Origin: Solirubrobacteraceae bacterium
Lineage (GTDB): Bacteria > Actinomycetota > Thermoleophilia > Solirubrobacterales > Solirubrobacteraceae
Direction of reading: 5' to 3'
DNA: 64,000 nt
Assembly (NCBI GenBank): GCA_035540675.1
Contig: DATLGB010000223.1
Coordinates: 4,502-68,501, forward strand
The notes beneath the pieces were generated by a model that was given only the letters and a program-made list of their open reading frames with translations, ran no database searches and had not been told where the DNA came from. Numbering within the stretch: the first letter of the stretch is position 1; every line of letters starts with the position of its first letter. Below, one piece after another: positions 5,748-44,731 of this stretch. The position numbers and the translations under genes are program-made.

Positions 5748-7103
5748 ATGGCCGGGACCGACCAGCTCGACGACGCGCCGGAGGCTCCGCCGCCCGGCGG
5801 CGGCGCGCCGCCGCCCGCACCCGTGGCGCCCGCGGCCACGCCACTCGCGCCGGCGGTGCTGCCGCGCTGGCTGCAGCTCGTGCTGCTGCCGCTGACCATC
5901 CTCGGCGCGTACGCGCTGCTGCAAGCGGCGGGTGGCGTCCTGCTGCTGTTCATCATCGCCGCGCTGATCGCGCTCCTGCTCAACCCGTCCGTGATGGTCC
6001 TGCGGCGGGCGCGCGTCCCGCGCGGGCTGGCCGTGCTGCTCGTGTTCCTCGCGCTGCTGACGGTGCTCGGCGGCGTCGGCGTGCTGCTGGCGAACCCGAT
6101 CGCCGACCAGGTGACCACGTTCCAGCGCGACGTGCCGACCTACGTCCGCGACGCCAACCAGGCGCTCGCCGACGTCGAGTCGTGGCTGCACGACCGCGGC
6201 ATCAACGTCGAGATCGCCGAGCAGGGCCAGACGGCGCTGCAGACGCTCGGGCAGCGGCTGACGGAGGGCTCGGGCGACCTCGTCAGCTTCACGCGCGAGG
6301 CACTCACGGCGCTGGTCGAGGCGTCGCTGGCGCTGATCCTCATCATCGTCCTGAGCGTCTACATGCTGCTCTACGGCGAGCGCATCGGCGCCGGCGTCCG
6401 GACCCTGGTGCCGCGCGGCGACGGCACGGCGGCCGACGACTTCCCGACGCGCATCCAGGCGGCGGTGTTCGGCTACGTCCGCGGCCAGCTGCTGTTCTCG
6501 ACGATCATGGGGGCGAGCGCCGGGCTGATGCTGTGGGTGCTCGGCAGCGTCGGGATCTTCCCCGAGGGCAAGACGTACGCCCTGTTCTTCGGCGCGTTCT
6601 ACGGCTTCGCCGAGCTGATCCCGTACATCGGGCCCGCCATCGGCGCGTCCCCGGCGGTGATGATCGCGCTGTTCGGGCCCGAACCACTCGACGCCGTGTG
6701 GCTGGTCATCGCGTTCACGGCGCTCCAGCAGATCGAGGGCCACATCGTGGCGCCGAACGTGTTCGCGCAGGCCCTGCGGATCAACCCGATCCTGGTGATC
6801 TTCGCCCTGCTCATGGGCCACTCGGTCTACGGGCTGATCGGCGCGTTCGTCGCCCTGCCGATCGCCGCGATGCTGCGCGAGACCGTCGTCTACATGCGCC
6901 GCCACGTCGTCCTCGAGCCATGGCCGCGGGTGGCGGTGGCGGGTGCCGGCCTCACCTCCGGGGTGCCGCCGCCGCAGGCGGCCGGCTCGTGCCCCGAGTG
7001 CGCGGCGCCGCTGCCGGCGGGGGCCGCCTTCTGCCCGGCGTGCGGCACGGAGGTCGACGAGCCCGGCGCGCAGGCTGCGGCGACGTCGGCGGCGCCGGGG
7101 TAG
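5748..7103 (+). CDS. AI-2E (PerM/UPF0118) family transporter with C-terminal zinc-ribbon
   Basis: Inner ATG of ORF 5481..7103. Multi-helix core ending ELIPYIGPAIG...QQIEGHIVAPNV. C-terminal CPECAAPLPAGAAFCPACG. Confidence 0.75.
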   Translation: MAGTDQLDDAPEAPPPGGGAPPPAPVAPAATPLAPAVLPRWLQLVLLPLTILGAYALLQAAGGVLLLFIIAALIALLLNPSVMVLRRARVPRGLAVLLVFLALLTVLGGVGVLLANPIADQVTTFQRDVPTYVRDANQALADVESWLHDRGINVEIAEQGQTALQTLGQRLTEGSGDLVSFTREALTALVEASLALILIIVLSVYMLLYGERIGAGVRTLVPRGDGTAADDFPTRIQAAVFGYVRGQLLFSTIMGASAGLMLWVLGSVGIFPEGKTYALFFGAFYGFAELIPYIGPAIGASPAVMIALFGPEPLDAVWLVIAFTALQQIEGHIVAPNVFAQALRINPILVIFALLMGHSVYGLIGAFVALPIAAMLRETVVYMRRHVVLEPWPRVAVAGAGLTSGVPPPQAAGSCPECAAPLPAGAAFCPACGTEVDEPGAQAAATSAAPG

Positions 7104-19680: not shown

Positions 19681-19753
19681 GCCCCTGTAGCTCAATTGGC
19701 AGAGCAGCGGACTCTTAATCCGAAGGTTGAAGGTTCGATTCCTTCCGGGGGCA
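19681..19753 (+). tRNA. tRNA-Lys (anticodon CUU)
   Basis: Hand-folded cloverleaf. Acceptor gcccctg/cgggggc (one G-U), D arm gctc-aattggca-gagc, anticodon loop cuCUUaa, T arm gaagg-ttcgatt-ccttc, discriminator A. CCA not encoded. Confidence 0.9.
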
Positions 19754-19857: not shown

Positions 19858-20529
19858 CTACGACGCCGGCAACGGCAGCCGCCAGAAGGGGCCGGTGAGC
19901 CCGAGCCCGTCGAGGATCGCCTGGTTGGCGTCGCGCGTTCGCGGGCGCCAGTCCGGCGCGAGCCGGTCGCCCCACCAGGCATGGGCGAGCTCGCACAGCA
20001 GCGCCGCGCCGATCGTCGCGCCCGGCGGCCGGTCGCCGAGCCAGCGCGCCACGTGCTCCTCCGACCGGAAGAGGTTCATGGTGCTTCAGGTGAAGACGAT
20101 GTCCTCCCACCAGCGCGCGGCGGGCACGAGGCAGTGGAACAGCAGGTCCTCGCGGTCGGGCCGGCCGTCGCGGACCTCGATCGCGAGCGGCTCGCCGCAG
20201 TCGGGGCACGAGGTCTCGATGCGCCCGTCGGCGTGCAGCGCGGCGCAGACGCCGAACGCGTCCCAGGCGCAGTTGGCGTACCACCAGCGCTCGCGCGCGT
20301 GGACCCGGTAGGCCGTCGGCACCGCCGAGAACGGGTTGGCCATCCGCAGCTCGTCGGTCCCGGGGCTGAGCACGAGCGCGTGCGCGTCGTGCAGGCGCCG
20401 CCAGCTCGCGCGCACGGCGTCGCCGTCGCGGCCGGTGGCCGCGGCGACTTCGCGGATCGTCGGCGCGCGGCCGAGCGCCACGAACCGCTCGTAGGTGGCG
20501 TTGCGCACGTCGAGGTCGAGCGCCTGCAC
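19858..20529 (-). CDS. Alkylmercury lyase (MerB)-like protein with in-frame TGA (codon 148) at the position of catalytic Cys159 of MerB; probable selenoprotein (alternatively a pseudogene)
   Basis: Track ORFs 20086..21117(-) and 19858..20079(-) are in the same frame, separated by TGA-AGC-ACC. Joined reading: ...WWYANCAWDAF (MerB WCALDTL, Cys96/Asp99)...DIVFT-U-STMNLFRSEEHVARW (MerB [11 protein letters not shown]). GTG start at 20529. Total 223 aa, as expected for the family. Confidence 0.65.
20056..20073 (-). promoter_or_regulatory. Candidate bacterial SECIS hairpin (MerB-like gene)
   Basis: mRNA: UGA-N12-CUCUUCC[GGUC]GGAGGAG. 7-bp stem (one G-U), GGUC tetraloop. Confidence 0.55.
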
Positions 20530-20589
20530 CCCGCGACCATCCCACCCGTTCCCACCGCGCGCAAGGCGTGAAGGAATAGCCTGCGCGGG

Positions 20590-21378
20590 GTGAGCGAGCT
20601 TCTCGCCTCCGTCGACGGCGCGATCACCCCCGCCGGCCAGGCGGTCATTCCCGTCGCCGACGAGGGGCTCCTGCGCGGCGACGGCGCCTTCGAGGTCATC
20701 CGCCTCTACGGCGGGCGGCCGTTCGCCCTCGACGAGCACGTGGAGCGGCTCGGGCGCTCCTGCGAGGGCCTGAAGCTCCCCGTCGACCTCGGCGTCCTGC
20801 GGGCGGAGGTGGACGCCCTGCTCGAGGCCGGCGCGGTCGACGGGCTGCTGCGCCTGGTCGTCACCCGCGGCGGCCGCCGGATCGCGATCGTCGAGCCGCG
20901 GCCGCAGTACGGCGCCACGGCGCGCGTCGCGACCGTGACCTTCTCGCCGTCGCGGGTGCTCGACGGCCTCAAGACGCTGTCGTACGCCGGCAACATGCTC
21001 GCCCTGCGCATCGCCAAGGAGCAGGGAGCCGACGAGGCGCTGTTCGTGACCCCGCACGGCCGCGTCCTCGAGGGCACCACGTGGACGTTCTTCTGGGTGG
21101 ACGGGGGGCGGCTGCACACGCCGCCGCTGTCCGAGCGCATCCTGGACTCGATCACCCGCCGGCGCCTGCTGGAGGAGTGCGACGTCGAGGAGCGCATCTG
21201 CACCCTCGACGGCCTGCGCGCCGCCCAGGAGGCGTTCATCGCCTCGACGGTGCGCGAGGTCATGCCGATCGCGGCGGTCGACGACCGCGCGCTGCCGGAG
21301 GCGCCGGGGCCGGTCACCGCGCGGGCGGCCGAGGCGCTGCGGGCGCGCATCGAGCGGGAGCTCGGCGCCGCCCGGTGA
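20590..21378 (+). CDS. Fold-type IV aminotransferase (branched-chain aminotransferase / aminodeoxychorismate lyase family)
   Basis: EGLLRGDGAFEVIR, RLVVTRGGG-like, LEGTTWTFFWV. Confidence 0.8.
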   Translation: MSELLASVDGAITPAGQAVIPVADEGLLRGDGAFEVIRLYGGRPFALDEHVERLGRSCEGLKLPVDLGVLRAEVDALLEAGAVDGLLRLVVTRGGRRIAIVEPRPQYGATARVATVTFSPSRVLDGLKTLSYAGNMLALRIAKEQGADEALFVTPHGRVLEGTTWTFFWVDGGRLHTPPLSERILDSITRRRLLEECDVEERICTLDGLRAAQEAFIASTVREVMPIAAVDDRALPEAPGPVTARAAEALRARIERELGAAR

Positions 21379-30460: not shown

Positions 30461-31549
30461 TCAGCAGATGCGCGGGAGCGGGTCGCCCGCGAGCATGTCG
30501 ACCACGCGGGACCCGCCGAAGGAGGTCTCGAGCACGACCATGCCCGGGGGCTCCGCGCGGACCTCGCCCACCACCGCGGCGTCGGTCCCCAGCGGATGGG
30601 CGCGCAGCGCCGCCAGCGCCTCCGCCTCCGCCTCCGGCGCCACCACCGCCAGCAGCTTGCCCTCGTTGGCCACGTAGAGCGGGTCGATGCCGAGGATCTC
30701 GCACGCGCCGGCGACGGCGGGACGCACGGGGATGGAGGCCTCGTCGAGCACGATCGCGACCTCGGCGCTCATGGCGAGCTCGTTCAGCACGGTGGCGACG
30801 CCGCCGCGCGTCGGGTCGCTCATGCAGCGCAGGTTCTCGCCCGCGGCGGCGCGCAGGGCGCCGGCGAGCTCGTGCAGCGGCGCCGAGTCGCTGCGCAGGT
30901 CGGCTTCGAGCTCGAGGCCGCCGCGGGCGACCATGATCGCCATCCCGTGATCGCCGATCGTGCCGGAGCACAGCACGCGATCGCCCGGCCGGATCGCCAT
31001 CGGCGAGAGCCGGTGGCCCTCGCGCACGCCGATGCCCGTCGTGCTCACGTACAGGCCGTCGGCCTTGCCGCGCTCGACCACCTTGGTGTCGCCGGTGACG
31101 ATGGCGACGCCGGCGCCGGCGGCCGCTTGCGCCATCGAGGCGACGTAGCGCTGGAGGTCGGAGACCGGCAGCCCCTCCTCGAGGACGACGCCCAGCGCGA
31201 GGAAGCACGGCCGCGCGCCGCTGACGGCGAGGTCGTTGATCGTGCCGTGCACCGCCAGCGAGCCGATGTCGCCGCCCGGGAAGTCGAGCGGCCGGACCAC
31301 GTAGGTGTCCGTCGAGATCGCGAGCGGCGCGCCGCCGGCGTCCACGACGGCGGCGTCGCCGAGCTCGGCCAGCGCCGGGTTGTCGAAGGCTCGCGCGAAG
31401 ACGGTCTCGATCAGGACGTGCGACGAGCGCCCGCCGGCGCCGTGGCTGAGCGTGATCCGCTCATCCATCAGCTTGACGTGCGGGCGACGCCGGCGGCGCT
31501 CGATCGCCTCGAGCACCTCCTCCTCGGAGCGCGTCGTCCTGCCGATCAC
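30461..31549 (-). CDS. hypE: Hydrogenase maturation protein HypE (carbamoyl dehydratase)
   Basis: C-terminal part of ORF 30461..31852. LSHGAGG, GDTKV, C-terminal PRIC. GTG 31549 overlaps the hypD stop (GTGA). Alternative ATG at 31471 (MDERITLSHG). Confidence 0.9.
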   Translation of the reverse strand: MIGRTTRSEEEVLEAIERRRRRPHVKLMDERITLSHGAGGRSSHVLIETVFARAFDNPALAELGDAAVVDAGGAPLAISTDTYVVRPLDFPGGDIGSLAVHGTINDLAVSGARPCFLALGVVLEEGLPVSDLQRYVASMAQAAAGAGVAIVTGDTKVVERGKADGLYVSTTGIGVREGHRLSPMAIRPGDRVLCSGTIGDHGMAIMVARGGLELEADLRSDSAPLHELAGALRAAAGENLRCMSDPTRGGVATVLNELAMSAEVAIVLDEASIPVRPAVAGACEILGIDPLYVANEGKLLAVVAPEAEAEALAALRAHPLGTDAAVVGEVRAEPPGMVVLETSFGGSRVVDMLAGDPLPRIC

Positions 31550-32679
31550 GCCGGCTCCATCGCCGCGTCGCGGCCGGCGCGGCGCTGGAAGCGGCCGAAG
31601 TTGTAGTACGCGGCGCAGGCGCCCTCGCTCGACACCATGCAGGTTCCGATCGGCCGGTCCGGGGTGCAGGCCGTGCCGAACACCTTGCACTCCCACGGCT
31701 TGATCACGCCCTTGAGCACCTCGCCGCACTGGCACGCCTTCGGGTCGGCCACCCGCACGCCGGGGACCGCGAAGCGCACCTCCGCATCCCAGTCGGCGAA
31801 GTCGTCGCGCAGCTTCAGCGCGCTCTGGGAGATGAAGCCCAAGCCACGCCACTCGAACGTCGTCCGCAGCTCCATCGTCTGCGCGATGGCCTGCAGCGCG
31901 AGCGGGTTGCCCTCCTCGCGCACCACGCGCGTGTACTGGTTCTCGACCTCGCTGCGACCCTCGGCGAGCTGCTTGAGCACCTGGTAGACGCCCTGCAGGA
32001 TGTCCAGCGGCTCGAACCCGGCCACGACGACGGGGCGCCCGTGGTCGCGCGCGATCCAGCGGTACGGGCGGGTGCCGATGACCGTCGACACGTGCCCCGG
32101 CCCGAGGAACCCGTCGAGGCGGAGGTCCGGCGAGTCGAGGATCGCTCGGATCGCCGGGATGATCGTCACGTGGTTGGCGAACACGCTGAAGTTGCGGATG
32201 CCCTCCGCGCGGGCGCGCAGCAGCGTCAGGGCCGTCGAGGGCGCCGTGGTCTCGAACCCGATCGCGAAGAACACGACCTCGCGGTCAGGGTTCTCGCGCG
32301 CGACCTTCAGCGCGTCCAGCGGCGAGTAGACCATCCGCACGTCGGCGCCGCGCGCCTTGGCGTCGAGCAGCGAGCCGCGGCTCGCGGGCACCCGCATCAT
32401 GTCGCCGAACGTGGTGAAGATCACCTCGGGGCGCTCGGCGATGGCGACGGCGTCGTCCTGCCGGCCCATCGGGATCACGCAGACGGGGCAGCCGGGGCCA
32501 TGGACCAGCTCGACGTTGGGCGGCAGCAGGTCCTCGATGCCGTGCTTGTAGATCGTGTGCGTGTGGCCGCCGCACACCTCCATCACCTTGTAGCCGCGGC
32601 CGGGATCCACCAGCGCCGCGATCTGCGCCGCCAGGCGCCGGGCGACGTCGCCGTCGCGGTACTCGTCGACGAACCTCAT
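31546..32679 (-). CDS. hypD: Hydrogenase maturation protein HypD
   Basis: MRFVDEYRD, MEVCGGHTH, GPGCPVCV, FxPGHVS-type motif GPGHVSTVIG, C-terminal Cys cluster. Confidence 0.95.
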   Translation of the reverse strand: MRFVDEYRDGDVARRLAAQIAALVDPGRGYKVMEVCGGHTHTIYKHGIEDLLPPNVELVHGPGCPVCVIPMGRQDDAVAIAERPEVIFTTFGDMMRVPASRGSLLDAKARGADVRMVYSPLDALKVARENPDREVVFFAIGFETTAPSTALTLLRARAEGIRNFSVFANHVTIIPAIRAILDSPDLRLDGFLGPGHVSTVIGTRPYRWIARDHGRPVVVAGFEPLDILQGVYQVLKQLAEGRSEVENQYTRVVREEGNPLALQAIAQTMELRTTFEWRGLGFISQSALKLRDDFADWDAEVRFAVPGVRVADPKACQCGEVLKGVIKPWECKVFGTACTPDRPIGTCMVSSEGACAAYYNFGRFQRRAGRDAAMEPA

Positions 32680-34010
32680 GGCCTCCCGATCCGGTCGAGC
32701 AGCAGGTGCGAGATCGTGGCGTGCGCCTCCTGCAGGCGCGGGACGTAGTCGCCGGGGACGCCGATGTGGTGGTCAAGCCAGCCGGCGCCGGCCAGACGGC
32801 CCCCGTCGTAGCCCGTGACGGCGACGGTCAGCATCCCGCGGCGGCGGGCCTCCTCGAGCCCGGCAAGGACGTTCGGCGACGACCCGCTCGTGGAGAACGC
32901 GATCGCCACGTCGCGCGCGCGGCCGAGCGGGATCAGCTGCCGGGCCCAGACGTTCTCGAAGCCGACGTCGTTGGCCACCGCGGTGACCGTCGGCGCGTCG
33001 TCGACGAGCGCGACCGCCGGCCAGCCCGCCGCCTGCGCGTCGAAGGCGAGGTCCTGGGCGTCGGTGGCCGAGCCGCCGTTGCCGAACGCGAGCAGGCGGC
33101 CGCCGGCGTCGAGGCGCGCGCGCACGGCCGCGGCGCACGCCGCGATCGCGTCGGCGTCGATCGTCCGCCGCAGCTCGATGGCGTCGCGCCCCTTGCGCAG
33201 TGTCGACGCGCGCACGTCGGCCAGGACGGCCTCGAGGTCGCGCTCGTCACCTTCGAGGAACGGATACAGGAAGCCCGTCGCCTCCGCCGGCGCGGCCGCG
33301 CGCTCGAGGCGCTCCAGCGCGACGCCGGCGTGGCAGAGCAACCGGTCGCCGGGTGCGACGGGCCCGACGAGGTCCACCGCGACCGTCTCGCGCGCGCCGC
33401 CGTGCTCGACGACCGCCGCCGTCCCCTCCACCGCGACGACCTCGACCTCCACCGCCACGTCGCCGCAGGTCAGGCACGCGTCGTCGAGCAGCCCCGGGTG
33501 CTCGAAGAAGACGTGCACGAGCTCCCACAGCACGTGGTACGTCGTCTCCTGCACCTCCTGGACGATCTCGGGCGCGGCAGCGGGCACCACGAACGCGTGG
33601 TCGGCGGCGAGCCGCTCCGCGCCGGCACCGAGCGCGATCGTCAGCATGCCGCGCCGTCGCGCTTCCTCCAGGAACGCGTCCAGCCGGCCGGGCTCGTGCG
33701 CCATCCCGATCGCGATGTCCTGCGGTCCGCCGAACGCCAGCGCCCGCTCCGGGCCGCCGGCGGGCGCGAGCGCCGGCAGCGCCCGCTTGCCGACGATCAC
33801 GGGGTGCATGAACTCGACCGCCACGTGGGCGGCGTCCGTGACGGCGGCGCCCGCGCCGTGCGCGATCAGCACGCCGCCGCGCGCGAAGGCGCGGGCGAGG
33901 TCGTGGCAGGCGCGCGCCAGCCGGTCCTGCTCGCGCTCGAGGAACGCCTCGAGCACCCGCTCGCGCTCGGCGATCGCGGTGGCGCTGGGACTGGTGGCGG
34001 AGGGCGTCAT
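32676..34010 (-). CDS. Fusion protein: degenerate SIS domain, HypC/HupF-like OB domain, then GmhA-like SIS domain
   Basis: ATG 34010 (ATGA with the hypC stop); its stop overlaps the hypD start (ATGA). The N-terminal SIS lacks S/T motifs (HGAGAAVTDAAHVAVEF). Middle CLTCGDVAVEVEVVAV...GDRLLCHAGVALERL. C-terminal AFGNGGSATDAQDLAFD and AFSTSGSSPNVLAGLEEARRRGMLTVAVTG. Confidence 0.7.
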   Translation of the reverse strand: MTPSATSPSATAIAERERVLEAFLEREQDRLARACHDLARAFARGGVLIAHGAGAAVTDAAHVAVEFMHPVIVGKRALPALAPAGGPERALAFGGPQDIAIGMAHEPGRLDAFLEEARRRGMLTIALGAGAERLAADHAFVVPAAAPEIVQEVQETTYHVLWELVHVFFEHPGLLDDACLTCGDVAVEVEVVAVEGTAAVVEHGGARETVAVDLVGPVAPGDRLLCHAGVALERLERAAAPAEATGFLYPFLEGDERDLEAVLADVRASTLRKGRDAIELRRTIDADAIAACAAAVRARLDAGGRLLAFGNGGSATDAQDLAFDAQAAGWPAVALVDDAPTVTAVANDVGFENVWARQLIPLGRARDVAIAFSTSGSSPNVLAGLEEARRRGMLTVAVTGYDGGRLAGAGWLDHHIGVPGDYVPRLQEAHATISHLLLDRIGRP

Positions 34011-34285
34011 TCGATCGAGGACGACCGCAGGTCGTCGAGCTCCTGCTCGAAGGCCTCGCCGAGCTCGACGAGGAACGCGCGCGTGGCCTCCGCCTCGGCC
34101 TCGTCGATCTTCGACATCGCGAAGCCGACGTGGATGAGCACCCAGTCGCCGACGTCGACGGCGTCGGGGCCGCCGCTGAGCAGGCCGACGTTGATCGCAC
34201 GCCGCACCCCCGAGACCTCCGCCTTGGCGATGTGGTGCTCGGGGTCGACCCACTCTACGATCTGGCCGGGAATTCCTAGGCACAT
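34007..34285 (-). CDS. hypC: Hydrogenase maturation chaperone HypC
   Basis: MCLGIPGQIVEW...GDWVLIHVGFAMSKIDEAEA. C-terminal part of ORF 34007..35698. Confidence 0.9.
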   Translation of the reverse strand: MCLGIPGQIVEWVDPEHHIAKAEVSGVRRAINVGLLSGGPDAVDVGDWVLIHVGFAMSKIDEAEAEATRAFLVELGEAFEQELDDLRSSSIE

Positions 34286-36462
34286 GACGCACGCATCCTC
34301 GCGGCCGCGACCGCAGCTTGTCCATAGGCGATCCCGCCGTCGTTCGGAGGCAGACGCCGGTGGGTCAGGACGCGGAACCCCGCCGCCTCGAGCCGCCGGC
34401 GCAGCGACCGGGCCAGCCGCCGGTTCTGCAGGCACCCCCCGCTGAGCGCGACGGTGTCGCCCGGAGTCGCCGCGGCGGCGCAGGCGGCGGCGAAGGCCGC
34501 GGCGAGGCCCTCGTGCACCGCGGCGGCGATCGCCGCCGCCGGGCGCCCGCCCCGCAGATCGTCGTGCGCGGCCCGCACGAGGTCGCTGCCGCGGATCACG
34601 CCGCCGGCGACCCGGCAGGGATAGGCGCGCGCCTCGGCGTCGCCAGCGAGCTGCTCGAGCTCGATCGCGGCCTGCCCCTCGTAGCTGATCACCTCGCGCA
34701 CGCCGAGCAGCGCCGCGACCGCGTCGAGCAGCCGCCCGGCGCCCGACGACGGGGGCGCGTTGACCGCCAGCGACTGGCGAACGAGCCTCCAGCGCTCCCA
34801 CGGCACCGGGCGCCCCGCCCGCTCGAGGTGCGCCGCGGCCGCGCGCCACGGCTCGCGGATGGCGGCCTCGCCTCCGGGCAGCGGCACCGGCTCGAGGTGC
34901 GCGACGCGCTCGAAGTCCGCCAGGTCGCACCGCAGCAGCTCGCCGCCCCAGAGCGTGCCGTCGGTCCCGTAGCCCGTCCCGTCGAGCACGATCGCCAGCG
35001 CGGGCGCCGTCTCGCCGTGCTCGGCCAGGCAGGCGGCGGCGTGCGCGTGGTGGTGCTGCACGCCGACGAGCTCGGCCTCCTGCTCCAGCGCCCAGCGCGT
35101 CGAGCGGTACTCGGGGTGCAGGTCGTGCGCGACGACCGCCGGCCGAATGCCGAGCATCTCCAGGTACAGGCGCAGGTCGTCGCCGAAGGCGAGCACCGCC
35201 GCCTCCGAGGAAAGGTCGCCGAGGTGCCCCGACGGGAACGCGCGCGCCCCGACCGCGACGCAGAACGCGCTCTTGAGGTCGGCTCCGGCGGCCACCAGCG
35301 GCTCCGGCGCCGCCAGCGGCAACGACAGCGGCGCCGGCGCCAGCCCGCGCGAGCGCCGCAGCGGATGCGCCGCCCGCACCACCGAGTCCTCGCAGCGCCG
35401 CTGGATTGGGCGGTCGTGGCCGAGGAAGGCGTCCGCGATGTCGCGCAGCCGGTCGTGCGCCTCGTCGTCGCCGACCGCGATCGGCTCGTCGCCGCGGTTG
35501 CCGCTGGTCATCACGAGCGGGCCGCCGAAGTCGTGCGCCAGCAGGTGGTGCAGCGGCGTGTAGGGGAGCATCACCCCGAGCTCCCGGGCGCCGGGCGCGA
35601 CCGACGGCGCGACGGGCGCGGCGGCCAGGCGCTCGAGCAGCACGATCGGCCGTGATGGCGCTTGCAACAGCGCCCGCTCGTCCGGCGATACCCGGCACAG
35701 CGCGTCCGGGTCGCCCGTCATCAGCGCGAACGGCTTGGCGTCGCGCGCCTTGCGCGCGCGCAGCCGCGCGACCGCGAGCTCATCGGCGGCGTCGCAGGCG
35801 AGATGCCAGCCGCCGAGGCCCTTCACGGCGAGGATGCCGCCGGCGCGCAGCACCGCGACCGCCTCCTCGAGCGGCATCGACAGGCGCGGCCCGCAGGCGG
35901 GACAGGCGATCGCCTCGGCGTGGAAGCGGCGGTCGGCCGGATCCTCGTACTCCGCCCGGCAGTCGCCGCAGAGGGGAAAGCCGGCCAGGGTCGTCCGCTC
36001 GCGGTCGTAGGGCAGCGCCCGCACGATCGTGAAGCGCGGCCCGCAGTTGGTGCAGGTCAGGAACGGGTAGCGGTGGCGCCGGTCGGCCGGGTCGAACAGC
36101 TCCCGCAGGCAGTCGGCGCACGTCGACAGGTCCGGCCCGATCGCCGGCGCCCCGGCGCCCCCGGCGCTCGTCGCGACGGCGAACCGGCGCTCTCCGCTCG
36201 GCGCCACGGACGTCTGCACGACGCCGTCGAGGGCGGCCGCGGCGGGCGCCTCGGCCACGAGCGCGGTGGCGAACGCATCCAGCGCCGCCGGCGACCCCTC
36301 GACCTCGACCTCGACGCCGGCGGCGGTGTTGCGGACATGGCCGCCGAGGCCGTGCCGGACGGCCAGGCCGTGCACGAAGGGCCGGAACCCCACGCCCTGC
36401 ACGATGCCCGTGATCTCGAGGCGGCGGCGCGCGGCCGGGACTGCGTCGGAGGCGACCGCCAC
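34276..36462 (-). CDS. hypF: Carbamoyltransferase HypF
   Basis: Acylphosphatase-like GIVQGVGFRPFV. Zn fingers CADCLRE..CTNCGPRFT and CGDCRAEY..CPACGPR. YrdC-like and Kae1-like C-terminal domains. Confidence 0.95.
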   Translation of the reverse strand: MAVASDAVPAARRRLEITGIVQGVGFRPFVHGLAVRHGLGGHVRNTAAGVEVEVEGSPAALDAFATALVAEAPAAAALDGVVQTSVAPSGERRFAVATSAGGAGAPAIGPDLSTCADCLRELFDPADRRHRYPFLTCTNCGPRFTIVRALPYDRERTTLAGFPLCGDCRAEYEDPADRRFHAEAIACPACGPRLSMPLEEAVAVLRAGGILAVKGLGGWHLACDAADELAVARLRARKARDAKPFALMTGDPDALCRVSPDERALLQAPSRPIVLLERLAAAPVAPSVAPGARELGVMLPYTPLHHLLAHDFGGPLVMTSGNRGDEPIAVGDDEAHDRLRDIADAFLGHDRPIQRRCEDSVVRAAHPLRRSRGLAPAPLSLPLAAPEPLVAAGADLKSAFCVAVGARAFPSGHLGDLSSEAAVLAFGDDLRLYLEMLGIRPAVVAHDLHPEYRSTRWALEQEAELVGVQHHHAHAAACLAEHGETAPALAIVLDGTGYGTDGTLWGGELLRCDLADFERVAHLEPVPLPGGEAAIREPWRAAAAHLERAGRPVPWERWRLVRQSLAVNAPPSSGAGRLLDAVAALLGVREVISYEGQAAIELEQLAGDAEARAYPCRVAGGVIRGSDLVRAAHDDLRGGRPAAAIAAAVHEGLAAAFAAACAAAATPGDTVALSGGCLQNRRLARSLRRRLEAAGFRVLTHRRLPPNDGGIAYGQAAVAAARMRASCA

Positions 36463-36468
36463 CCGTAC

Positions 36469-36822
36469 CTACGGCGTCGCCGGCCGCGGCAGGTCGGCGC
36501 GCGAGTCGATGTCGGCGGGCGAGGCGGCGGCCGTGCCGGCCTCCGTCGGGCCGCCCGAGGTCGTCTGCTCGGCGGGTGGCGCCGGCTCGCCCACGACCTC
36601 CTGCAGCGCGGTGGCCACCTGGGTGAGCGCCGCGTTGACGTCGCCGAGCGCCTGGCCGATCGGCGCCGTCTGCGACTCGATCGCGCGCACGCCGAACGTC
36701 ACGAGGCCGAGGGTCTTGGAGATGTTGCGCAGCGTCCGGGCGATCGCGATCAGGTAGCCCGCGAGCACGACGACGAGCAGCAGGACCTCGACGAGCGTGA
36801 GGACGATCAGCAGGGTGTTCAC
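36469..36822 (-). CDS. Small single-pass membrane protein, paralog 4 of 4 (117 aa)
   Basis: GTG 36822 (GTGA with the upstream stop). VNTLLIVLTLVEVLLLVVVLAGYLIAIARTLRNISK..., Pro/Ala-rich tail. Ends 7 nt before the hypF start. Confidence 0.6.
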   Translation of the reverse strand: MNTLLIVLTLVEVLLLVVVLAGYLIAIARTLRNISKTLGLVTFGVRAIESQTAPIGQALGDVNAALTQVATALQEVVGEPAPPAEQTTSGGPTEAGTAAASPADIDSRADLPRPATP

Positions 36823-37091
36823 GATTGGCCCCTCCCGGCTTGGCGATGGCGCTCGACTTCCTCGGCGAGCTCGGTTCCACGGGCGACGGTCGCCCCCAGC
36901 AGGTACGACGTCTGCGTGTTCTGGGCGACGAGCTTGCCGGTGTCCCACAGCACGGCCACGCCCTCGTCGATCCGCTTGACCGTGCGGCGCAGCGCCTCGA
37001 GGAGGGCCCACACCACCAGGGCCACCACGAGACCCACCGCGAGCGTGATCCACCACGCGGTCTGGTTCGACGTCATCGCGATCACGGTCAT
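36819..37091 (-). CDS. Small single-pass membrane protein, paralog 3 of 4 (90 aa)
   Basis: Track ORF. ATGA overlap. AWWITLAVGLVVALVVWALLEALRRTVKRIDEG... Confidence 0.6.
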   Translation of the reverse strand: MTVIAMTSNQTAWWITLAVGLVVALVVWALLEALRRTVKRIDEGVAVLWDTGKLVAQNTQTSYLLGATVARGTELAEEVERHRQAGRGQS

Positions 37092-37360
37092 ACGAGCCCC
37101 AGCTTCTTGAGGTAGCCGACGGCGAGGCCCGGAACGGCGCCGCCGAGGCGGCGGGTCGTGGCGAGCTGCTCGACGCCGTCGAGGTTGGTGGCGATGCCCA
37201 CGCCGGCCTGCAGGATGTCCTTCGCGTAGGAGTCGATCTCGCGCGCGGGCGCCATGATCCGCTGGAAGAGCGCGATCACGACGGCGAGCACCACGACGCC
37301 GAGCACGAGCCCGACGATCGCGAGCACGGCGCCGGCGGTCGACACGGCCAGGACGCTCAT
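37088..37360 (-). CDS. Small single-pass membrane protein, paralog 2 of 4 (90 aa)
   Basis: ATG 37360 (ATGA overlap). MSVLAVSTAGAVLAIVGLVLGVVVLAVVIALFQRIMAPAREID... Confidence 0.6.
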   Translation of the reverse strand: MSVLAVSTAGAVLAIVGLVLGVVVLAVVIALFQRIMAPAREIDSYAKDILQAGVGIATNLDGVEQLATTRRLGGAVPGLAVGYLKKLGLV

Positions 37361-37608
37361 CCGAACAGCTTCTCCCGCGCGGCGGCGAGGCTGCGCGTTA
37401 TGCGGTCGACGGTGTGGTTGGTCGTCCGGACCTCCCACAGCGGGTCCGTGTTCGCCGCCGCGCCCGCCAGGGCGCGCGTGATGTCCCCCGCCTGGCGCAC
37501 GATGCGCCGGCCCTCGCCGATGATCACCAGCAGCAGCGTCGCCGCGATCAGCACGACCACGAGCCCGACGCCCCAGCCGACGTACCAGCCGTAGGAGAGC
37601 GCGGTCAC
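37357..37608 (-). CDS. Small single-pass membrane protein, paralog 1 of 4 (83 aa)
   Basis: GTG 37608 (GTGA overlap with the DUF1059 stop). VTALSYGWYVGWGVGLVVVLIAATLLLVIIGEGRRIVRQAGDI... Confidence 0.55.
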   Translation of the reverse strand: MTALSYGWYVGWGVGLVVVLIAATLLLVIIGEGRRIVRQAGDITRALAGAAANTDPLWEVRTTNHTVDRITRSLAAAREKLFG

Positions 37609-37790
37609 TTCGACGGGAGGTCGCGGATCGCGGAGCGCGCGTAGCGGGCCAGCGTCGACGACTGCGAGAGGTCGACGCCGTGGACCTCCTTGGCGTGCTC
37701 GACCGCCTTCGCGAGGACCTCCTCCTCGGTCTCGCCCCGCACCTCGGCCTTGCACAGGACGCCGGCGTCCGCGCACTTGAAGCTCTTCAC
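37605..37790 (-). CDS. DUF1059-type small metal-binding protein (61 aa)
   Basis: GTG 37790 inside ORF 37605..37841. (M)KSFKCADAGVLCKAEVRGETEEEVLAKAVEHAKEVHG. Confidence 0.7.
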   Translation of the reverse strand: MKSFKCADAGVLCKAEVRGETEEEVLAKAVEHAKEVHGVDLSQSSTLARYARSAIRDLPSK

Positions 37791-37806
37791 GACGGGACCT
37801 CCACCG

Positions 37807-37870
37807 TTGACCTCTCCGCTCCCAGGCGGTAGATGTACCATACATACAGTGCCCGGTCCACCCGGACCGG
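37807..37870 (+). promoter_or_regulatory. Candidate sigma70-like promoter, overlapping palindrome and 5'-UTR hairpin in the divergent hydrogenase/hyp intergenic region
   Basis: TTGACC (37807-12), 17-nt spacer, TAGATG (37830-35). Palindrome ATGTA-cca-TACAT (37833-45) in the only AT-rich patch. Hairpin ccggtcc-accc-ggaccgg (37853-70). SD GGGAGGGAG at 37876-84. Confidence 0.3.
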
Positions 37871-37891
37871 CGTGTGGGAGGGAGAGCGACG

Positions 37892-39283
37892 GTGGCGACG
37901 CGAGCGAGGACGTCCGAGAAGACTCCGGCCGAGCGGCTGCTCGACGCCCTCGGCCCGGTCGAGGGGTTCAACCCCGACCATGGCGACTTCGGGTCACCGG
38001 CGCGGATGACGATGGAGGACTACCTCGCGCCCCACGCCGTCGCCGACGAGTCGACGCGCCTCGGCCCGCTCGAGAAGGTGCACCTCTTCTGGTTCGCCGG
38101 GATGAGCTGCGACGGCTGCAGCGTCGCGGTCACCGGCGCGCAGGCGCCGACCCTCGAGGGGCTGCTGATGGGCGCCCACCCGGGCCTGCCGCGCGTCGTG
38201 CTGCACCACCCGGTGGTCAACCTCGAGGCCGGCCCGGCCTACGTCCGCGCGGCCGAGCAGGCGCTCGCGGGAACGCTCGACGCGCCGTACGTGATCGTGC
38301 TCGAGGGTTCGATCAGCGACGAGACGATCCCGTACGCGTTCGGCGGCTACTGGGCGGGCCAGGGCGAGGAGCCCTGGGGGCCCGACGGCGAGCAGCGGAC
38401 CGTCACGGCCGACGAGTGGATCGCACGCATGGCCGACGGCGCCGCGGCGATGATCGCCATCGGCACGTGCGCCACCTGGGGCGGCATCCCGTCGGCGGCC
38501 GGCAACCCGACGGGGGCCATGAGCCTGATGGACTTCCTCGGCCGCGACTACCGCAGCACCTTCGGGGTGCCGGTCATCAACGTCCCGGGCTGCCCGCCGA
38601 TCGGCGACAACTTCACGGAGGCCGTCGCCGCGGTCGTGTACTTCCTGCAGGGCTTCGGGCCGCTGCCGGAGTTCGACGAGCTCGGACGGCCGGCCTGGCA
38701 GTTCGGCGAGACGGTGCACCGCCACTGCACGCGCGGCGCGTACTACGAGGAGGGCAACTTCGCGAAGGAGTACGGCGACAAGGAGTGCCTCGTCGAGCTC
38801 GGCTGCTGGGGCCCGGTCGTCAACTGCAACATCACCTCGCGCGGCGCCATCAACCACCACGGCGGGTGCATGAACGCCGGCGGCCCCTGCATCGGCTGCA
38901 CGATGCCCGGCTTCCCCGACAAGTTCACGCCGTTCTACAAGGCGCCGCCGGGCTCGAAGGTCTCCAGCACGATGTCGCGGATGCTCGGCTCCTTCATCCG
39001 CCCGCTGCGCGAGTACTCGAACGAGCACCTCAACCGGGAGGTGCGCTGGGACCTCGAGGGCCACGTCCCCAGCGGGTGGGCGCGGCGCCAGGAGGAGCCG
39101 GGGCCCATCCGGGCCGTCGGGCACCGCTTCTACGACCGGATGCGCCAGTCGACCGACGGCGCACGGCGCTCCGGCGAGACGTGGGGCAAGCGCGACGAGT
39201 TCACGTTGATGAAGGACCCGTCGCTGGATCGCCGCCTCCCGGGCGGCGAGGAGGAGACGCTCACCATCGACGAGGGGCGCTAG
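37892..39283 (+). CDS. [NiFe]-hydrogenase small subunit, no Tat signal, long hydrophilic C-terminal extension
   Basis: GTG 37892, 7 nt after GGGAGGGAG (track start 37874 also possible). FWFAGMSCDGCS, GTCATWGGIP, PGCPPIGDN, HRHC..C, CLVELGCWGPVVNC, GGCMNAGGPCIGCTMPGFPD. No RRxF motif. Confidence 0.9.
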   Translation: MATRARTSEKTPAERLLDALGPVEGFNPDHGDFGSPARMTMEDYLAPHAVADESTRLGPLEKVHLFWFAGMSCDGCSVAVTGAQAPTLEGLLMGAHPGLPRVVLHHPVVNLEAGPAYVRAAEQALAGTLDAPYVIVLEGSISDETIPYAFGGYWAGQGEEPWGPDGEQRTVTADEWIARMADGAAAMIAIGTCATWGGIPSAAGNPTGAMSLMDFLGRDYRSTFGVPVINVPGCPPIGDNFTEAVAAVVYFLQGFGPLPEFDELGRPAWQFGETVHRHCTRGAYYEEGNFAKEYGDKECLVELGCWGPVVNCNITSRGAINHHGGCMNAGGPCIGCTMPGFPDKFTPFYKAPPGSKVSSTMSRMLGSFIRPLREYSNEHLNREVRWDLEGHVPSGWARRQEEPGPIRAVGHRFYDRMRQSTDGARRSGETWGKRDEFTLMKDPSLDRRLPGGEEETLTIDEGR

Positions 39284-39287
39284 CGCC

Positions 39288-41189
39288 GTGTGCTTCAAGA
39301 ACCTCCCCATCGAGTTCGACGAGGGCGGCGTCGCCACCCTGCGCGGCGGCATCCCCAATCCCTACGCCGTCGAGGTGTCAAAGCCCCACGTGGGGATGAC
39401 CAACGACGAGCAGCGCGAGCAGATCGAGCGCCTCGTCGCGTCCAACGGGCACATCCGCGAGATCAACATGGACCCGGTCACGCGCGTGGCCGGCGCCATC
39501 GCGCTCAACATCGCCGCCAACCTCGACGACGGCAAGTACCTCGACGCGCGCTCGCAGGCGACGCTGTTCCGCGGCTACGAGGTGATCCTCATGGGCCGCG
39601 ACCCGCGCGACGCGATCTTCGTGTCCTCGCGCGCGTGCGGCGTCTGCGGCGGCGTCCACGCTCACTGCTCGGCCTACGCGATCGAGATGGCGATGGGCGT
39701 CGCGCCGCCGCCGATGGGGACCGTCGTGCGCAACCTCGGCGAGGCCGCCGAGATGGGCTACGACAACCCGCTGCACCTCTACCTGCTGGCCGGCCCCGAC
39801 TACTCCGAGATCGTCGTCCGCGCCACCAACCCGGAGATCTGGGAGAAGGCGCAGACGTGGAAGTGCCCCGGCGCCGAGCACCACGGCTTCAAGACCATGG
39901 GCGAGCTGATGACGGCGCTGAACCCGCTGACGGGCCGCCTGTACCGCGAAGGACTGGACTTCACCCGGCTGGCGCGCGAGATGTTCGTGCTGCTGCACGG
40001 CAAGTACCCGCACCCGCAGGCGATCGTCCCCGGCGGCGTCACCTCGACGATCTCGCTGCAGACGCTCAACGAGTACCAGGCCAAGCTCGGGCGCATCTTC
40101 GACTACGCCCAGCGCCTGGTCGCGGTGTGGGACGACATCCCGGAGTTCTTCTACGAATGCGACGAGCGCTACAAGCTCGTCGGCTCGCGGCCGGTCAACC
40201 TCGTCGACACCGGCTTCTGGGACGACCCCTACGCCTACGACGCCACGTACGAGAACTGCAACGAGTGGGGCGCGCGCCGCTGGTCGACGCCGGGCGCGAT
40301 CATCGACGGCGAGCTGGTCACGACGCGCCTGACCGACCTCAACATGGGCATCGAGGAGTTCGTCGAGCACTCCTACTACGAGCAGTGGGCGGGCGACCGC
40401 TACGAGACCGACCCGCTCGGCAACCCGCTCTCGCCCTACCACGCGTGGAACAAGCAGACGCTGCCCAAGCCGAGCGGGCGCAGCTGGAAGGACAAGTACA
40501 CCTGGGCCTGCACGCCGCGCTGGGACCGCCACGTCGTCGAGGCCGGCGCCTACAACCGCCTGTTCATGACGGCGCTGGCGCAGCAGCAGCCCGAGAACGA
40601 CTTCATCGAGGCCACCGGCACCGGCATCCGCATGTCGATCCCCAAGGGCTACACGAAGGCCGCCGAGGCCGAGTGGCGGATCCCGGACTCCTGGAACGCG
40701 TTCGAGCGCAACCGGGGGCGCGCCTACCACTACCTGTTCTCGCAGCTCGTCGGCCTGTCGAGCCTGCTCGAGGCCTACAAGCTCTTCCGCGCGGGTGAGA
40801 CGCGGGTCGCCGCGCTGAACTCCAAGGAGCTCGAGAAGGCGATGCCGCGCGACGAGCGGCGCGGCGTCGGCTTCTGGGGCGCCGGCCGGGGCTGGCTGAC
40901 GCACCACATCGTCATGGACAACGGCAAGATCACCAACTACCAGATCAACACCCCGTCGACCATCAACGCCTCGCCGCGCGACCCGTGGGGACAGCCCGGG
41001 CCGTACGAGCAGGCGGTCCAGAACACGCCGATCCTCGAGAAGTTCTCGAGTCCCGACGAGTTCACGTCGATCGACATGCTGCGGGCGCTGCGGTCGTTCG
41101 ACCCGTGCATGCCGTGCACGACCCACACGGCCACCGGCAACGGCACCGTGATCGGCCAGGTGAACACCTGCTCGTGCGGCGCCGACTGA
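39288..41189 (+). CDS. [NiFe]-hydrogenase large subunit (subgroup unassigned)
   Basis: L1 RACGVCGGVHAHC, L2 RSFDPCMPCTTH followed by a 20-aa cleavable-type tail. GC3-rich from the GTG at 39288. Atypical DPVTRVAGA and GAGRGWLTHH. Confidence 0.9.
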   Translation: MCFKNLPIEFDEGGVATLRGGIPNPYAVEVSKPHVGMTNDEQREQIERLVASNGHIREINMDPVTRVAGAIALNIAANLDDGKYLDARSQATLFRGYEVILMGRDPRDAIFVSSRACGVCGGVHAHCSAYAIEMAMGVAPPPMGTVVRNLGEAAEMGYDNPLHLYLLAGPDYSEIVVRATNPEIWEKAQTWKCPGAEHHGFKTMGELMTALNPLTGRLYREGLDFTRLAREMFVLLHGKYPHPQAIVPGGVTSTISLQTLNEYQAKLGRIFDYAQRLVAVWDDIPEFFYECDERYKLVGSRPVNLVDTGFWDDPYAYDATYENCNEWGARRWSTPGAIIDGELVTTRLTDLNMGIEEFVEHSYYEQWAGDRYETDPLGNPLSPYHAWNKQTLPKPSGRSWKDKYTWACTPRWDRHVVEAGAYNRLFMTALAQQQPENDFIEATGTGIRMSIPKGYTKAAEAEWRIPDSWNAFERNRGRAYHYLFSQLVGLSSLLEAYKLFRAGETRVAALNSKELEKAMPRDERRGVGFWGAGRGWLTHHIVMDNGKITNYQINTPSTINASPRDPWGQPGPYEQAVQNTPILEKFSSPDEFTSIDMLRALRSFDPCMPCTTHTATGNGTVIGQVNTCSCGAD

Positions 41190-41202
41190 GTCGCGGCGGC
41201 GC

Positions 41203-41688
41203 GTGATCCTCGTCGCCGGGGTCGCCGAGCTCTACCAGGGCGACCTCGACCTCGGGCGCGTCGCCGTCGCGCGGCTGCAGGAGGCCGGCCTCGGCGACGA
41301 CGTGCGGGTGGAGGAGCTCTCCTACGGCGCCGTGGCCGTGACGCAGCGGCTGCAGGAGCTGCGGCCGGACGCACTCGTCCTGATCGCGGCGCACCCGCGC
41401 GGCCGCGAGCCCGGCAGCGTCGAGCGGCGCGACGTCGGCCCCAGCGACCTCCCCGCGGCCGAGCTGCAGACGGCCATCGGCGACGCGATCACCGGCTACG
41501 TGACGGTCGACCTGCTCGTCGAGGTGGCGACGGCGCTGGAGGCGCTGCCGCCGCGAGTGGTCGCCATCGAGGTCGAGCCGGCGCGGGTCGAGCCGGTCGA
41601 CGAGCTGTCCGAGCCGGCGCGGGCGGGGCTCGAGCGGGCGCTCGAGCTCGTGCGCACGGAGGTCGAGCGCCTGCGGGCGCGCAGCTAG
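41203..41688 (+). CDS. Degenerate HyaD/HupD-family hydrogenase maturation protease-like protein
   Basis: Fold-level resemblance (ILVAGVAELYQGDLDLGRVAV...ALVLIAAHP...). By my alignment the GNxxxxD(D/E)GxG motif and the Glu/Asp/His metal ligands are not conserved. Confidence 0.55.
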   Translation: MILVAGVAELYQGDLDLGRVAVARLQEAGLGDDVRVEELSYGAVAVTQRLQELRPDALVLIAAHPRGREPGSVERRDVGPSDLPAAELQTAIGDAITGYVTVDLLVEVATALEALPPRVVAIEVEPARVEPVDELSEPARAGLERALELVRTEVERLRARS

Positions 41689-42419
41689 AGCGCCGGCACG
41701 ATCTCGTCCGGCGGCTCGAGCCGGGCGAGGTGCTGCGGGCGGACGGCGATCCGCCGCCCGTCGGGCTGCTCGATCACGAGCGCACCGTCGCGCAGCACGC
41801 TCGTCGCGGTGCCGGTGATCTGGACTCCATCCGGCCAGGTGGGGATGAGGTGCGCCCGGACCGGACGGCCGAGCGTCGCGCAACGCTCGCGATAGCGCGC
41901 GAGGGCGGCGTCGTCGGGCTCCTGGAGGCGCTCCACGGCCGCCGCCAGGCGGGCGATCAGCTCGCCGCGCGGGGAGGGCGCGTCGAGCACGAGCAGGTTG
42001 ACGACCGCCCACTCCACGCCGGTGGGACCGAGCCCCGCGTGCCCGGCCACGTCGGCCAGCCGGCGCTCGGTCGCCCACACCTGGTCGGGCCACTCGATCG
42101 CCGCAGCGGGATCGACCGCGTCGACCACGGCGGCCGCGGCGGCGACGAACAGCCAGCCCTCGTCGTCGGGCGCGAGCTGCGGCCGCAGCAGCAGCGAGAA
42201 GCACAGGTCGCGGCCCGGGCGAGGCGTCCACGGCAGGCCGCCGCGGCCGCGCGCGGCGGCCTGGTAGTCGGCGGTGACGACGGCGCCCGCAGGCCCGCCG
42301 GCGCGCGCCCAGGCGACGGCGTCGGCGTCGGTCGACATGACGGCGGGATAGGTGCGGACGGGGCGATCGCCGAGCGCGCGCGCGAGCGCGTCGGGGGTGA
42401 GGTCGTCGCTCAGCGCCAC
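41685..42419 (-). CDS. Biotin/lipoate protein ligase (BirA catalytic domain)-like protein
   Basis: Track ORF. ADYQAAARGRGGLPWTPRPGRDLCFSLLLRP resembles the GRGRxGRxWxSPxGxxL motif, but degenerate. Confidence 0.5.
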   Translation of the reverse strand: MALSDDLTPDALARALGDRPVRTYPAVMSTDADAVAWARAGGPAGAVVTADYQAAARGRGGLPWTPRPGRDLCFSLLLRPQLAPDDEGWLFVAAAAAVVDAVDPAAAIEWPDQVWATERRLADVAGHAGLGPTGVEWAVVNLLVLDAPSPRGELIARLAAAVERLQEPDDAALARYRERCATLGRPVRAHLIPTWPDGVQITGTATSVLRDGALVIEQPDGRRIAVRPQHLARLEPPDEIVPAL

Positions 42420-44266: not shown

Positions 44267-44731
44267 ACCGGCCGCATCATCGTCGCGTGCGTGGGCAACG
44301 TCCTGCGGCTCGACGACGGTTTCGGGTACGCGGTCGCCGAGCGGCTCGGCGACGTGCCGCCGGGCGTCGAGGTGCTGGAGAGCGGCATCGGCGGCATGAT
44401 GGTCGTGCAGGAGCTGCTGGTCGGGGCGGACGGGCTGATCATCGTGGACGCCGTGGACCGCGGCGCGGCGCCCGGCACGCTGTTCGTGATCGAGCCGGAG
44501 GTGGAGCCGCCGTCGCAGGTCGGCGACATCCACCTGTCCAACCCGGACAAGGTGCTGTCGCTGGCCGGCGGCCTCGGGTGCCTGCCTGAGCGGCTCCTGC
44601 TGGTCGGCTGCCAGCCGCGCGACGTCGAGGGCATGGGTCGCCGCCTGTCGCCGGAGGTCGAGCGAGCCGTGGACCTGGCGGTCGACCGCATCCACGCGAT
44701 CCTGCGCGAGTGGACGGCCGCCCCGGCGTGA
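44258..44731 (+). CDS. Hydrogenase maturation endopeptidase (HyaD/HupD/HybD family), canonical
   Basis: IIVACVGNVLRLDDGFGYAV, LIIVDAV, GDIHLSNP. The start is uncertain: TTG 44258 is the only in-frame start upstream of the first strand, and it overlaps the divergent NifU-like start by 9 nt. Confidence 0.75.
   Translation: MDHTGRIIVACVGNVLRLDDGFGYAVAERLGDVPPGVEVLESGIGGMMVVQELLVGADGLIIVDAVDRGAAPGTLFVIEPEVEPPSQVGDIHLSNPDKVLSLAGGLGCLPERLLLVGCQPRDVEGMGRRLSPEVERAVDLAVDRIHAILREWTAAPA

Follow-up and report, generated by a model that had tools for sequence, protein, structure and literature searches.

Introduction

The closest described system to the gene reported here is SaoL (NF040728), a MerB-like organometallic lyase that is a selenoprotein (Haft and Gwadz, bioRxiv 10.1101/2022.07.06.499078; listed in PMC13188914). 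In SaoL, a selenocysteine (Sec) aligned to Cys159 of MerB is part of a CU motif, the gene belongs to the nine-gene SAO locus, and the hosts are described as exclusively anaerobes from the Firmicutes, Deltaproteobacteria and Spirochaetes (bioRxiv 10.1101/2022.07.06.499078). Here, we describe a MerB-like gene from a 64,000-nucleotide stretch of a Solirubrobacteraceae genome (contig DATLGB010000223.1 of assembly GCA_035540675.1); the whole stretch is called the window below, and positions are counted from its first letter. Judging from comparative sequence data, it is very probable that positions 19858-20529 of the minus strand form a single functional gene for a 223-residue enzyme of the MerB superfamily, in which a UGA decoded through a selenocysteine insertion sequence (SECIS) places Sec at the active-site position equivalent to Cys159.

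The window protein resembles SaoL in that both belong to the PF03243 superfamily, have a single in-frame UGA/Sec at the Cys159 place and retain the equivalents of Cys96 and Asp99. We do not assign it to SaoL, because it scores 45.7 bits against the NF040728 cut-off of 140, has a T-U-S/G motif instead of C-U, is encoded by a stand-alone gene outside any SAO nine-gene locus and flanked by unrelated genes, and occurs in high-GC Actinomycetota rather than in the anaerobes listed for SaoL. A conserved CPDC motif is, in addition, peculiar to the subfamily of the window protein. With MerB and MerB2 (EC 4.99.1.2; PDB 3F0O, 3FN8, 5C17) the window protein shares the fold, the Pfam domain and the occupation of the three catalytic positions, but the identity is about 20%, Sec stands in for Cys159, Cys160 is missing, and there is no mer context. 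No description of this MerB-like Sec clade was found in the literature searched, nor do Zhang and Gladyshev 2008 or Peng et al. 2016 mention MerB in their main text. We regard the clade as a genuine, if so far predicted, selenoprotein gene that is distinct from SaoL and undescribed in the literature searched.

Results and Discussion

One reading frame across a UGA codon

A first-pass annotation, made from the letters of the window alone, had noted two open reading frames (ORFs), 20086..21117(-) and 19858..20079(-), which share a frame and are separated by TGA-AGC-ACC, and had joined them into a product of 223 amino acids (aa) that starts at GTG 20529. All of these elements are found in place. 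Translation from the GTG yields 147 aa, a stop and another 75 aa, hence 223 residues if the TGA is decoded (Table 1). At the site, the minus strand reads GAC ATC GTC TTC ACC TGA AGC ACC ATG AAC CTC TTC CGG TCG GAG GAG CAC GTG. Database entry P0002, which is 100% identical, begins at the same start codon. The part of ORF 20086..21117 that lies beyond 20529 does not belong to the gene and is not coding, as it runs opposite to a gene for a class IV aminotransferase (20590-21378, plus strand).

The joined product matches the Pfam family MerB (PF03243) with 92.5 bits (cut-off 27) over profile positions 1-125 of 126, and the match runs across the TGA; the 147-aa fragment alone reaches 60.1 bits. The first-pass annotation had also aligned the product with MerB, assigning Cys96, Asp99 and, for the TGA, Cys159, and this assignment is borne out by the family profile. 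In the profile alignment, NCAWDA of the window protein falls on AWCALDTL of MerB, with C87 on Cys96 and D90 on Asp99, and the TGA column falls on the first C of the MerB segment SFCCHVHFF. This C is Cys159, since the chain of the C160S mutant reads SFCSHVHFF at the same place. Cys165 of MerB2 (5c17) is aligned to the TGA column as well. All positions of the catalytic triad Cys96/Asp99/Cys159 are filled in the window protein, namely by C87, D90 and the UGA (Sec148), the Cys159 place being the one that is not a Cys. The Cys87/Asp90 motif is invariant among close homologs.

The structural model of a Cys-containing homolog points to the same fold. For P0003, which is 65% identical to the window product, the AlphaFold2 (AF2) model has a predicted local distance difference test score (pLDDT) of 97 and a predicted template modelling score (pTM) of 0.92, and its only significant PDB neighbours are MerB2 (5c17; template modelling (TM) scores 0.69/0.74) and MerB entries (TM 0.57-0.64). 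The C-terminal part sits within the confidently folded MerB-like core of the model. At the N-terminus, helices span residues 6-22, 28-35 and 39-51, and Foldseek reports partial matches of this module, over 50-60 residues, to the helix-turn-helix domains of MntR, IdeR and LexA.

Two invariant motifs of the subfamily are absent from canonical MerB, i.e., CPDC (C108-P-D-C111, 20195-20206) and H132-C133 (20131-20136), both on the minus strand. Weak Pfam zinc-ribbon matches occur at residues 105-118. The CPDC and the His-Cys pair may form an additional metal site or a redox relay.

Relatives and the codon at the Sec column

The protein search returned 6,703 matches, and approximately 6,700-7,000 clusters at 90% identity resemble the window protein. 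Nearly all of the best 120 matches are 142-147 aa long and end at DIVFT. Four of these 120 have a Cys at the column, three of them full length (219-230 aa) and one N-terminally truncated; they are 64-67% identical to the window product, and their C-terminus is highly conserved. At a coarser level, at least 63 of 150 representatives of 50%-identity clusters stop exactly before the Sec column. The first-pass annotation had placed a catalytic Cys at this column, and a Cys is indeed what homologs carry: it is found in 4/4 close homologs and in 18 of the 22 full-length 50%-cluster representatives that run through the column, the others having Trp (2), Ala (1) or Tyr (1).

The codon itself was read from genomes. 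A scan of one genome per species gave 437 relatives, and the best 80 loci were taken (Gaiellales, Solirubrobacterales, Acidimicrobiia and others). TGA occupies the column in 79 of them and TAG in one, where the 79 consist of 77 loci parsed in a first pass and two added later. Divergent metagenomic members with a GC content of 0.49-0.68 have TGA in 4/4 cases, and orthologs outside the Geodermatophilaceae have it in 84/84. These 84 assemblies are independent, with complete chromosomes and isolates among them. All values for diversity, entropy and pairing given below refer to a set of 79 sequences, which includes the window and whose loci have a GC content of 0.60-0.77.

Decay of the gene in relatives, a possibility already raised by the first-pass annotation, was looked for and not seen in this set. 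The frame after the TGA is free of stops within 67 codons in 79/79 sequences, and the downstream reading frame of the orthologs, 73-75 codons long, is conserved. Nucleotide diversity at codon positions 1/2/3 is 0.224/0.193/0.462 downstream of the TGA and 0.171/0.132/0.424 upstream. Given this three-periodic diversity and the lack of stops, the region past the TGA appears to be translated in frame under purifying selection. The residues flanking Sec in the orthologs follow the pattern T/S/A-U-S/G/T/A, with F-T-U-S in the window protein.

The two homologs with Trp at the Sec/Cys column are P0130 and P0139, the latter corresponding to locus L089 on a metagenome contig. It was considered that the Trp could stem from a TGA mistranslated with genetic code 4; this was rejected for L089, the only one examined, which has a genuine TGG. 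As TGG is one base from TGA, the Trp-column members may be former Sec forms without the catalytic residue. A different irregularity was observed in L057, a metagenome-assembled genome (MAG) of the Solirubrobacteraceae with approximately 4.7x coverage. Here, an additional in-frame TGA stands in place of a conserved Trp (WW to W*), seven codons ahead of the Sec codon. Either a sequencing error due to low coverage or a true pseudogene could explain it.

A hairpin linked to the stop codon

The SECIS-like hairpin proposed in the first-pass annotation, a 7-bp stem closed by a GGUC loop, 12 nt downstream of the TGA, is present and is recovered by RNAfold. The 5' arm lies at 20073-20067, the loop at 20066-20063 and the 3' arm at 20062-20056, and one of the seven base pairs is a G-U. 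RNAfold adds a 5-bp lower stem, formed by CCAUG (20081-20077) and CGUGG (20053-20049), with a small internal loop between both stems. The sequence around the hairpin has 74.5% GC.

In the set of 79 sequences, 99.1% of the cells of the upper stem pair. For the lower stem this holds for 91.4%, with U-A to U-G changes being tolerated, and the lower stem, a probable one, is less well supported than the upper one. Selection at the RNA level was argued from three kinds of evidence. The first is synonymous-site entropy. The codons in the stem-loop are fixed, with Leu CTC in 78/78, Arg CGG in 79/79 and Ser TCG in 79/79 sequences; the synonymous entropy of these Leu, Arg and Ser codons is 0 bits, versus 1.2-2.3 bits for the same three amino acids at conserved positions in the rest of the gene. 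Third-position diversity drops from approximately 0.44 to 0.14 at codons +4 to +11. Only one site within the hairpin varies freely, GAG/GAA (42:37), which lies opposite a U and pairs both ways. Other variants keep the pairing as well, i.e., TTC to TTT opposite G and a Leu-to-Phe exchange (CTC to TTC) opposite G.

The second kind of evidence is the contrast to the Cys and Trp forms. At this site, the four Cys forms (TGC/TGT) and the single Trp form (TGG) examined encode an NLF(R/L)(S/A)E-type peptide by other codons, e.g., CTG TTT CGC TCC or CTT TTT CTC GCC, and do not form the hairpin, which is decayed in the TGG form L089. Since the same peptide exists without the hairpin, the hairpin goes with the stop codon and not with the protein sequence. 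Thirdly, two divergent members were compared. L086, on a contig with 49% GC, shows a compensatory change from C-G to U-A while CGG TCG is retained, and the hairpin of L087 (8 bp with a CGUGAC loop) differs in sequence but not in position or shape and is accompanied by an equivalent lower stem. The comparative data indicate that the hairpin is not a chance structure. Its conservation in orthologs, named as a check by the first-pass annotation, is seen in the nucleotide sequence itself and goes together with the TGA.

We take the SECIS of E. coli fdhF to be similarly arranged, i.e., a stem-loop in the coding region right after the UGA, with a spacer of about 11 nt versus 12 nt here. Presumably the GGUC apical loop is also shared with the fdhF SECIS, and it puts G and U approximately 23-25 nt from the U of the UGA. 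This comparison has its background in the work of Huttenhofer and Bock and of Fourmy et al. on SelB and the SECIS. Unlike fdhF, the upper stem in the window has no bulged U; the sequences are otherwise unrelated, and there is no Rfam match.

Synonymous sites are also unusually fixed directly before the TGA, at codons -5 to -1 (20089-20103, minus strand), with GAC in 79/79, TTC in 75/76 and GTC in 62/69 sequences. This hints at a codon-context constraint or at an RNA element longer than the tested hairpin.

UAG instead of UGA in four Geodermatophilaceae orthologs

A special situation was found in the Geodermatophilaceae. The Sec column holds TAG in all four orthologs from this family, whose hairpin is identical and whose C-terminal frame is intact: Geodermatophilus saharensis (L063), Blastococcus saxobsidens (L090), Modestobacter excelsi (L091) and Blastococcus sp. 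PRF04-17 (L092). G. saharensis is the lone TAG case among the 80 loci, and the other three orthologs were fetched afterwards. According to Santesmasses et al. (PMC5330540; first reported by Mukai et al. 2016), Geodermatophilaceae genomes encode a tRNASec whose anticodon is CUA, and TAG serves as Sec codon in their selenoprotein genes. For the four TAG carriers, the CUA anticodon is assumed from this family-level statement of PMC5330540.

Roughly every third gene called in the window has TAG as its stop. If the codon at the column were a plain stop, a mixture of stop codons would therefore be expected everywhere. As far as the sequences tell, the codon at the column tracks the Sec-decoding system of the lineage, and the switch appears to match the change of the tRNASec anticodon rather than a generic near-cognate read-through. 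On this reading, nature itself cleanly demonstrates, by the alternation of TGA and TAG, that the choice of codon follows Sec decoding.

A TAG with a hairpin is also described for formate dehydrogenase, a UGSC-motif protein and AhpC of the Geodermatophilaceae in PMC5330540. The MerB-like gene is not in the list that the passage on the family gives, and the gene in the window differs in its use of UGA. The MerB-like family would be an addition to the short list of UAG-Sec selenoproteins. The TAG pattern reaches Modestobacter, a genus that is not individually named in that passage.

Table 1. Positions and properties of the features of the MerB-like gene in the window
Feature	Positions	Strand	Remarks
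Predicted MerB-like selenoprotein gene, complete	19858..20529	-	GTG start 20529, 223 residues, Sec predicted at 148, stop TAG 19860-19858
UGA codon, residue 148, equivalent of MerB Cys159	20086..20088	-	Cys in Cys-form homologs
Upper SECIS-like hairpin CUCUUCC-GGUC-GGAGGAG	20056..20073	-	RNAalifold consensus of 79 sequences
Extended element with probable 5-bp lower stem around the upper hairpin	20049..20081	-	Minimum free energy fold of the window sequence
Codons Cys87-Ala-Trp-Asp90, motif NCAWDA	20260..20271	-	Equivalent to MerB Cys96 and Asp99; profile alignment
C-terminal 75 residues, expected only with UGA decoded	19861..20085	-	Completes the MerB domain
N-terminal ~60 residues, three-helix winged-helix-like module, typical of MerB-family proteins	20350..20529	-	AF2 model

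Proposed decoding and its alternatives

In the mechanism we propose, the UGA at 20088-20086 would be read as Sec rather than as a stop. The hairpin inside the coding sequence, with its 7-bp upper stem, the GGUC loop and a probable lower stem, would act as a bacterial SECIS and, by analogy with the SelB-SECIS system of E. coli, recruit SelB-GTP-Sec-tRNASec to the ribosome. Upon insertion of Sec, and thus presumably of selenium, 75 further residues would be translated and the MerB fold be completed. The data that support Sec decoding of this gene, all at the sequence level, are the continuous conserved frame, the equivalence of Cys and Sec at the column, the constraint on the hairpin, its linkage to the stop and the codon switch.

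Several observations weigh against Sec decoding. The stability of the hairpin does not differ significantly from that of dinucleotide shuffles (z = -0.40), so that in a single sequence the hairpin could be due to chance. Double compensatory changes are absent from the close clade, since its stem hardly varies, and covariation comes from the two divergent members only. Part of the nucleotide conservation in the hairpin is protein-level conservation, as the peptide NLFRSEE itself is conserved. Rfam gave no SECIS or tRNA-Sec match, either for the whole window at the gathering threshold or for 19980-20140 under permissive settings, and apparently has no model for a hairpin of this kind. No selA, selB, selD or tRNA-Sec was found within the 64-kb window. 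Finally, re-initiation is a formal possibility, given an invariant ATG that follows the TGA at a distance of three codons.

This last point leads to the only rival that deserves weight, even though we consider it very improbable. Translation would stop at the TGA after 147 aa and start again at the ATG at 20079, and the 147-aa and 73-aa products would make up a two-piece MerB-like protein. Such a split gene could draw on the ATG at +3 codons, which is invariant in 79/79 sequences, and on the databases, where the C-terminal piece is often and routinely called as a separate ORF of 69-73 aa (including P0246 and P0257); purifying selection on the C-terminal part would be expected equally. However, the Cys159-equivalent catalytic residue would be absent from such a protein. 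The Met is also conserved, internally, in the Cys forms and need not be a start codon, no Shine-Dalgarno sequence precedes the ATG, and the frame as well as the 2-codon spacing are retained in all sequences examined. A split gene gives no account of TGA in 84/84 orthologs with TAG confined to the UAG-Sec family, nor of the loss of the hairpin along with TGC, TGT and TGG.

Stop-codon read-through can be stimulated by downstream structures, and this general ability would allow a selenium-free version, in which the UGA is read, with stimulation by the hairpin, by a tRNA for Trp, Cys or Arg that is near-cognate or a suppressor. The Trp at the column in a few homologs (P0130, P0139; TGG in L089) and the window's lack of Sec machinery are compatible with it. 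We nevertheless hold it to be very unlikely, as homologs have a catalytic Cys at the column, which makes a classic Cys/Sec pair, the position of the hairpin and its GGUC loop resemble those of the fdhF SECIS, the switch from TGA to TAG occurs exactly in the Geodermatophilaceae, and the hairpin is gone in the TGG form. There is hardly any probability left for the TGA being a nonsense mutation or base-calling error in a decaying or misassembled gene: close Cys-form homologs do exist, TGC is one base from TGA and the L057 MAG has its additional in-frame TGA at a conserved Trp, but the same codon occurs in the same column of 84 independent assemblies, 79/79 sequences show codon-periodic selection and neither frameshifts nor later stops, thousands of database entries end at exactly the same residue, and purifying selection on the downstream frame excludes pseudogene and sequencing error alike.

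Possible function and distribution

The first-pass annotation, in line with the MerB literature, took Cys159 of MerB to be the residue that attacks the C-Hg bond. Because Cys87, Asp90 and Sec148 occupy the catalytic positions of MerB, protonolysis of a carbon-metal bond is the most economical function for the window protein with Sec at this site. The bond cleaved would most plausibly be C-Hg, with the selenolate replacing one of the two thiolates. Three results lend no support to this function. The NCBIfam MerB equivalog models NF009710 and NF033555 score the window protein at 31.5 and 31.2 bits versus cut-offs of 193 and 200. No mer operon context (merR, merT, merP, merA) is found at the window gene, and there are no conserved neighbours, the commonest one, an alpha/beta-hydrolase, occurring in only 8 of the neighbourhoods examined.

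The hosts of the clade are aerobic soil Actinomycetota, including Gaiellales, Solirubrobacterales, Acidimicrobiia and Geodermatophilaceae; the clade is very large, and its gene stands alone. The replacement of Cys159 by Sec in the MerB family would accordingly not be restricted to anaerobes or to the SAO locus but be widespread in aerobic high-GC soil bacteria, which suggests that carbon-metal bond chemistry generally benefits from a selenolate at the Cys159 site.

Public annotation (RefSeq, GenBank, JGI) gives the gene a product of 147 aa, which is either named 'organomercurial lyase' or 'alkylmercury lyase' or listed as hypothetical. RefSeq isolates annotated in this way belong to Geodermatophilus, Blastococcus and Modestobacter, and there are thousands of MAG and metagenome entries as well (e.g., P0391, P0399, P0438, P0462, P0009 and P0118, and the loci L085, L087, L091 and L092). 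If the UGA is decoded as proposed, thousands of entries are systematically misannotated, and the real product is a selenoprotein of about 220 aa.

Going further, we tentatively put forward, as a possibility that we rate below even, that the clade is a major unrecognised selenoenzyme of aerobic soil Actinomycetota, i.e., a mer-independent selenol organometal lyase that demethylates trace methylmercury or another organometal(loid). If true, soil mercury and metalloid cycling as well as the selenium demand of aerobic soils would involve an enzyme that marker-gene surveys and annotation overlook, because only a 147-aa 'truncated MerB' is visible to them. With Blastococcus saxobsidens and Geodermatophilus saharensis, cultivable carriers are at hand, which makes the biochemistry directly testable.

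Gene neighbourhood and further in-frame TGA codons

Two candidates for Sec machinery inside the window were examined and rejected. A gene pair of 463 and 633 aa, which by size could be selA and selB, encodes the small and large subunits of a [NiFe]-hydrogenase. The protein with an AIRS domain at 30461-31549 is not SelD but HypE by context, as it lies beside hypD and hypF. In 24 related loci, no tRNA-Sec adjoins the MerB-like gene. The sole tRNA in the window is a tRNA-Lys(CUU) at 19681-19753 (+); it lies on the strand opposite to the MerB-like gene, approximately 100 nt past the 3' end of that gene, and is not kept beside it in other genomes.

The [NiFe]-hydrogenase cluster spans 30461-44731. 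On the minus strand it comprises hypE, hypD, a HypC/SIS fusion and hypF, and on the plus strand the genes for two maturation proteases and for the hydrogenase subunits, the small one at 37892-39283 and the large one at 39288-41189. Just downstream of this cluster lies a gene for a CooC-like P-loop ATPase, 45347-46099(+), with an in-frame TGA at 45665-45667. The TGA takes the place of the first Cys in the motif G-T-G-C-L-C, which is invariant; 9/9 close homologs (68-75% identical) have Cys in this column. A perfect 8-bp hairpin, ACGCUACG-GUC-CGUAGCGU, follows 13 nt after the TGA at approximately 45681-45699. It is built with the T-ending codons GCT and CGT, which are rare in this genome, where the GC content at third codon positions is about 0.97. 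The best 120 CooC-like homologs are all full length, and a Sec form of this protein looks rare, unlike that of the MerB-like gene. CooC is absent from the selenoprotein list of a 2026 review. As a second candidate with a TGA and a hairpin, the CooC-like gene fits a Sec-decoding organism.

An in-frame TGA at 9203 was likewise considered as a Sec candidate and rejected, as it is the end of an ABC-2 permease gene that is followed by hemB in the same frame. A further in-frame TGA with coding signal on both sides is located at 52848.

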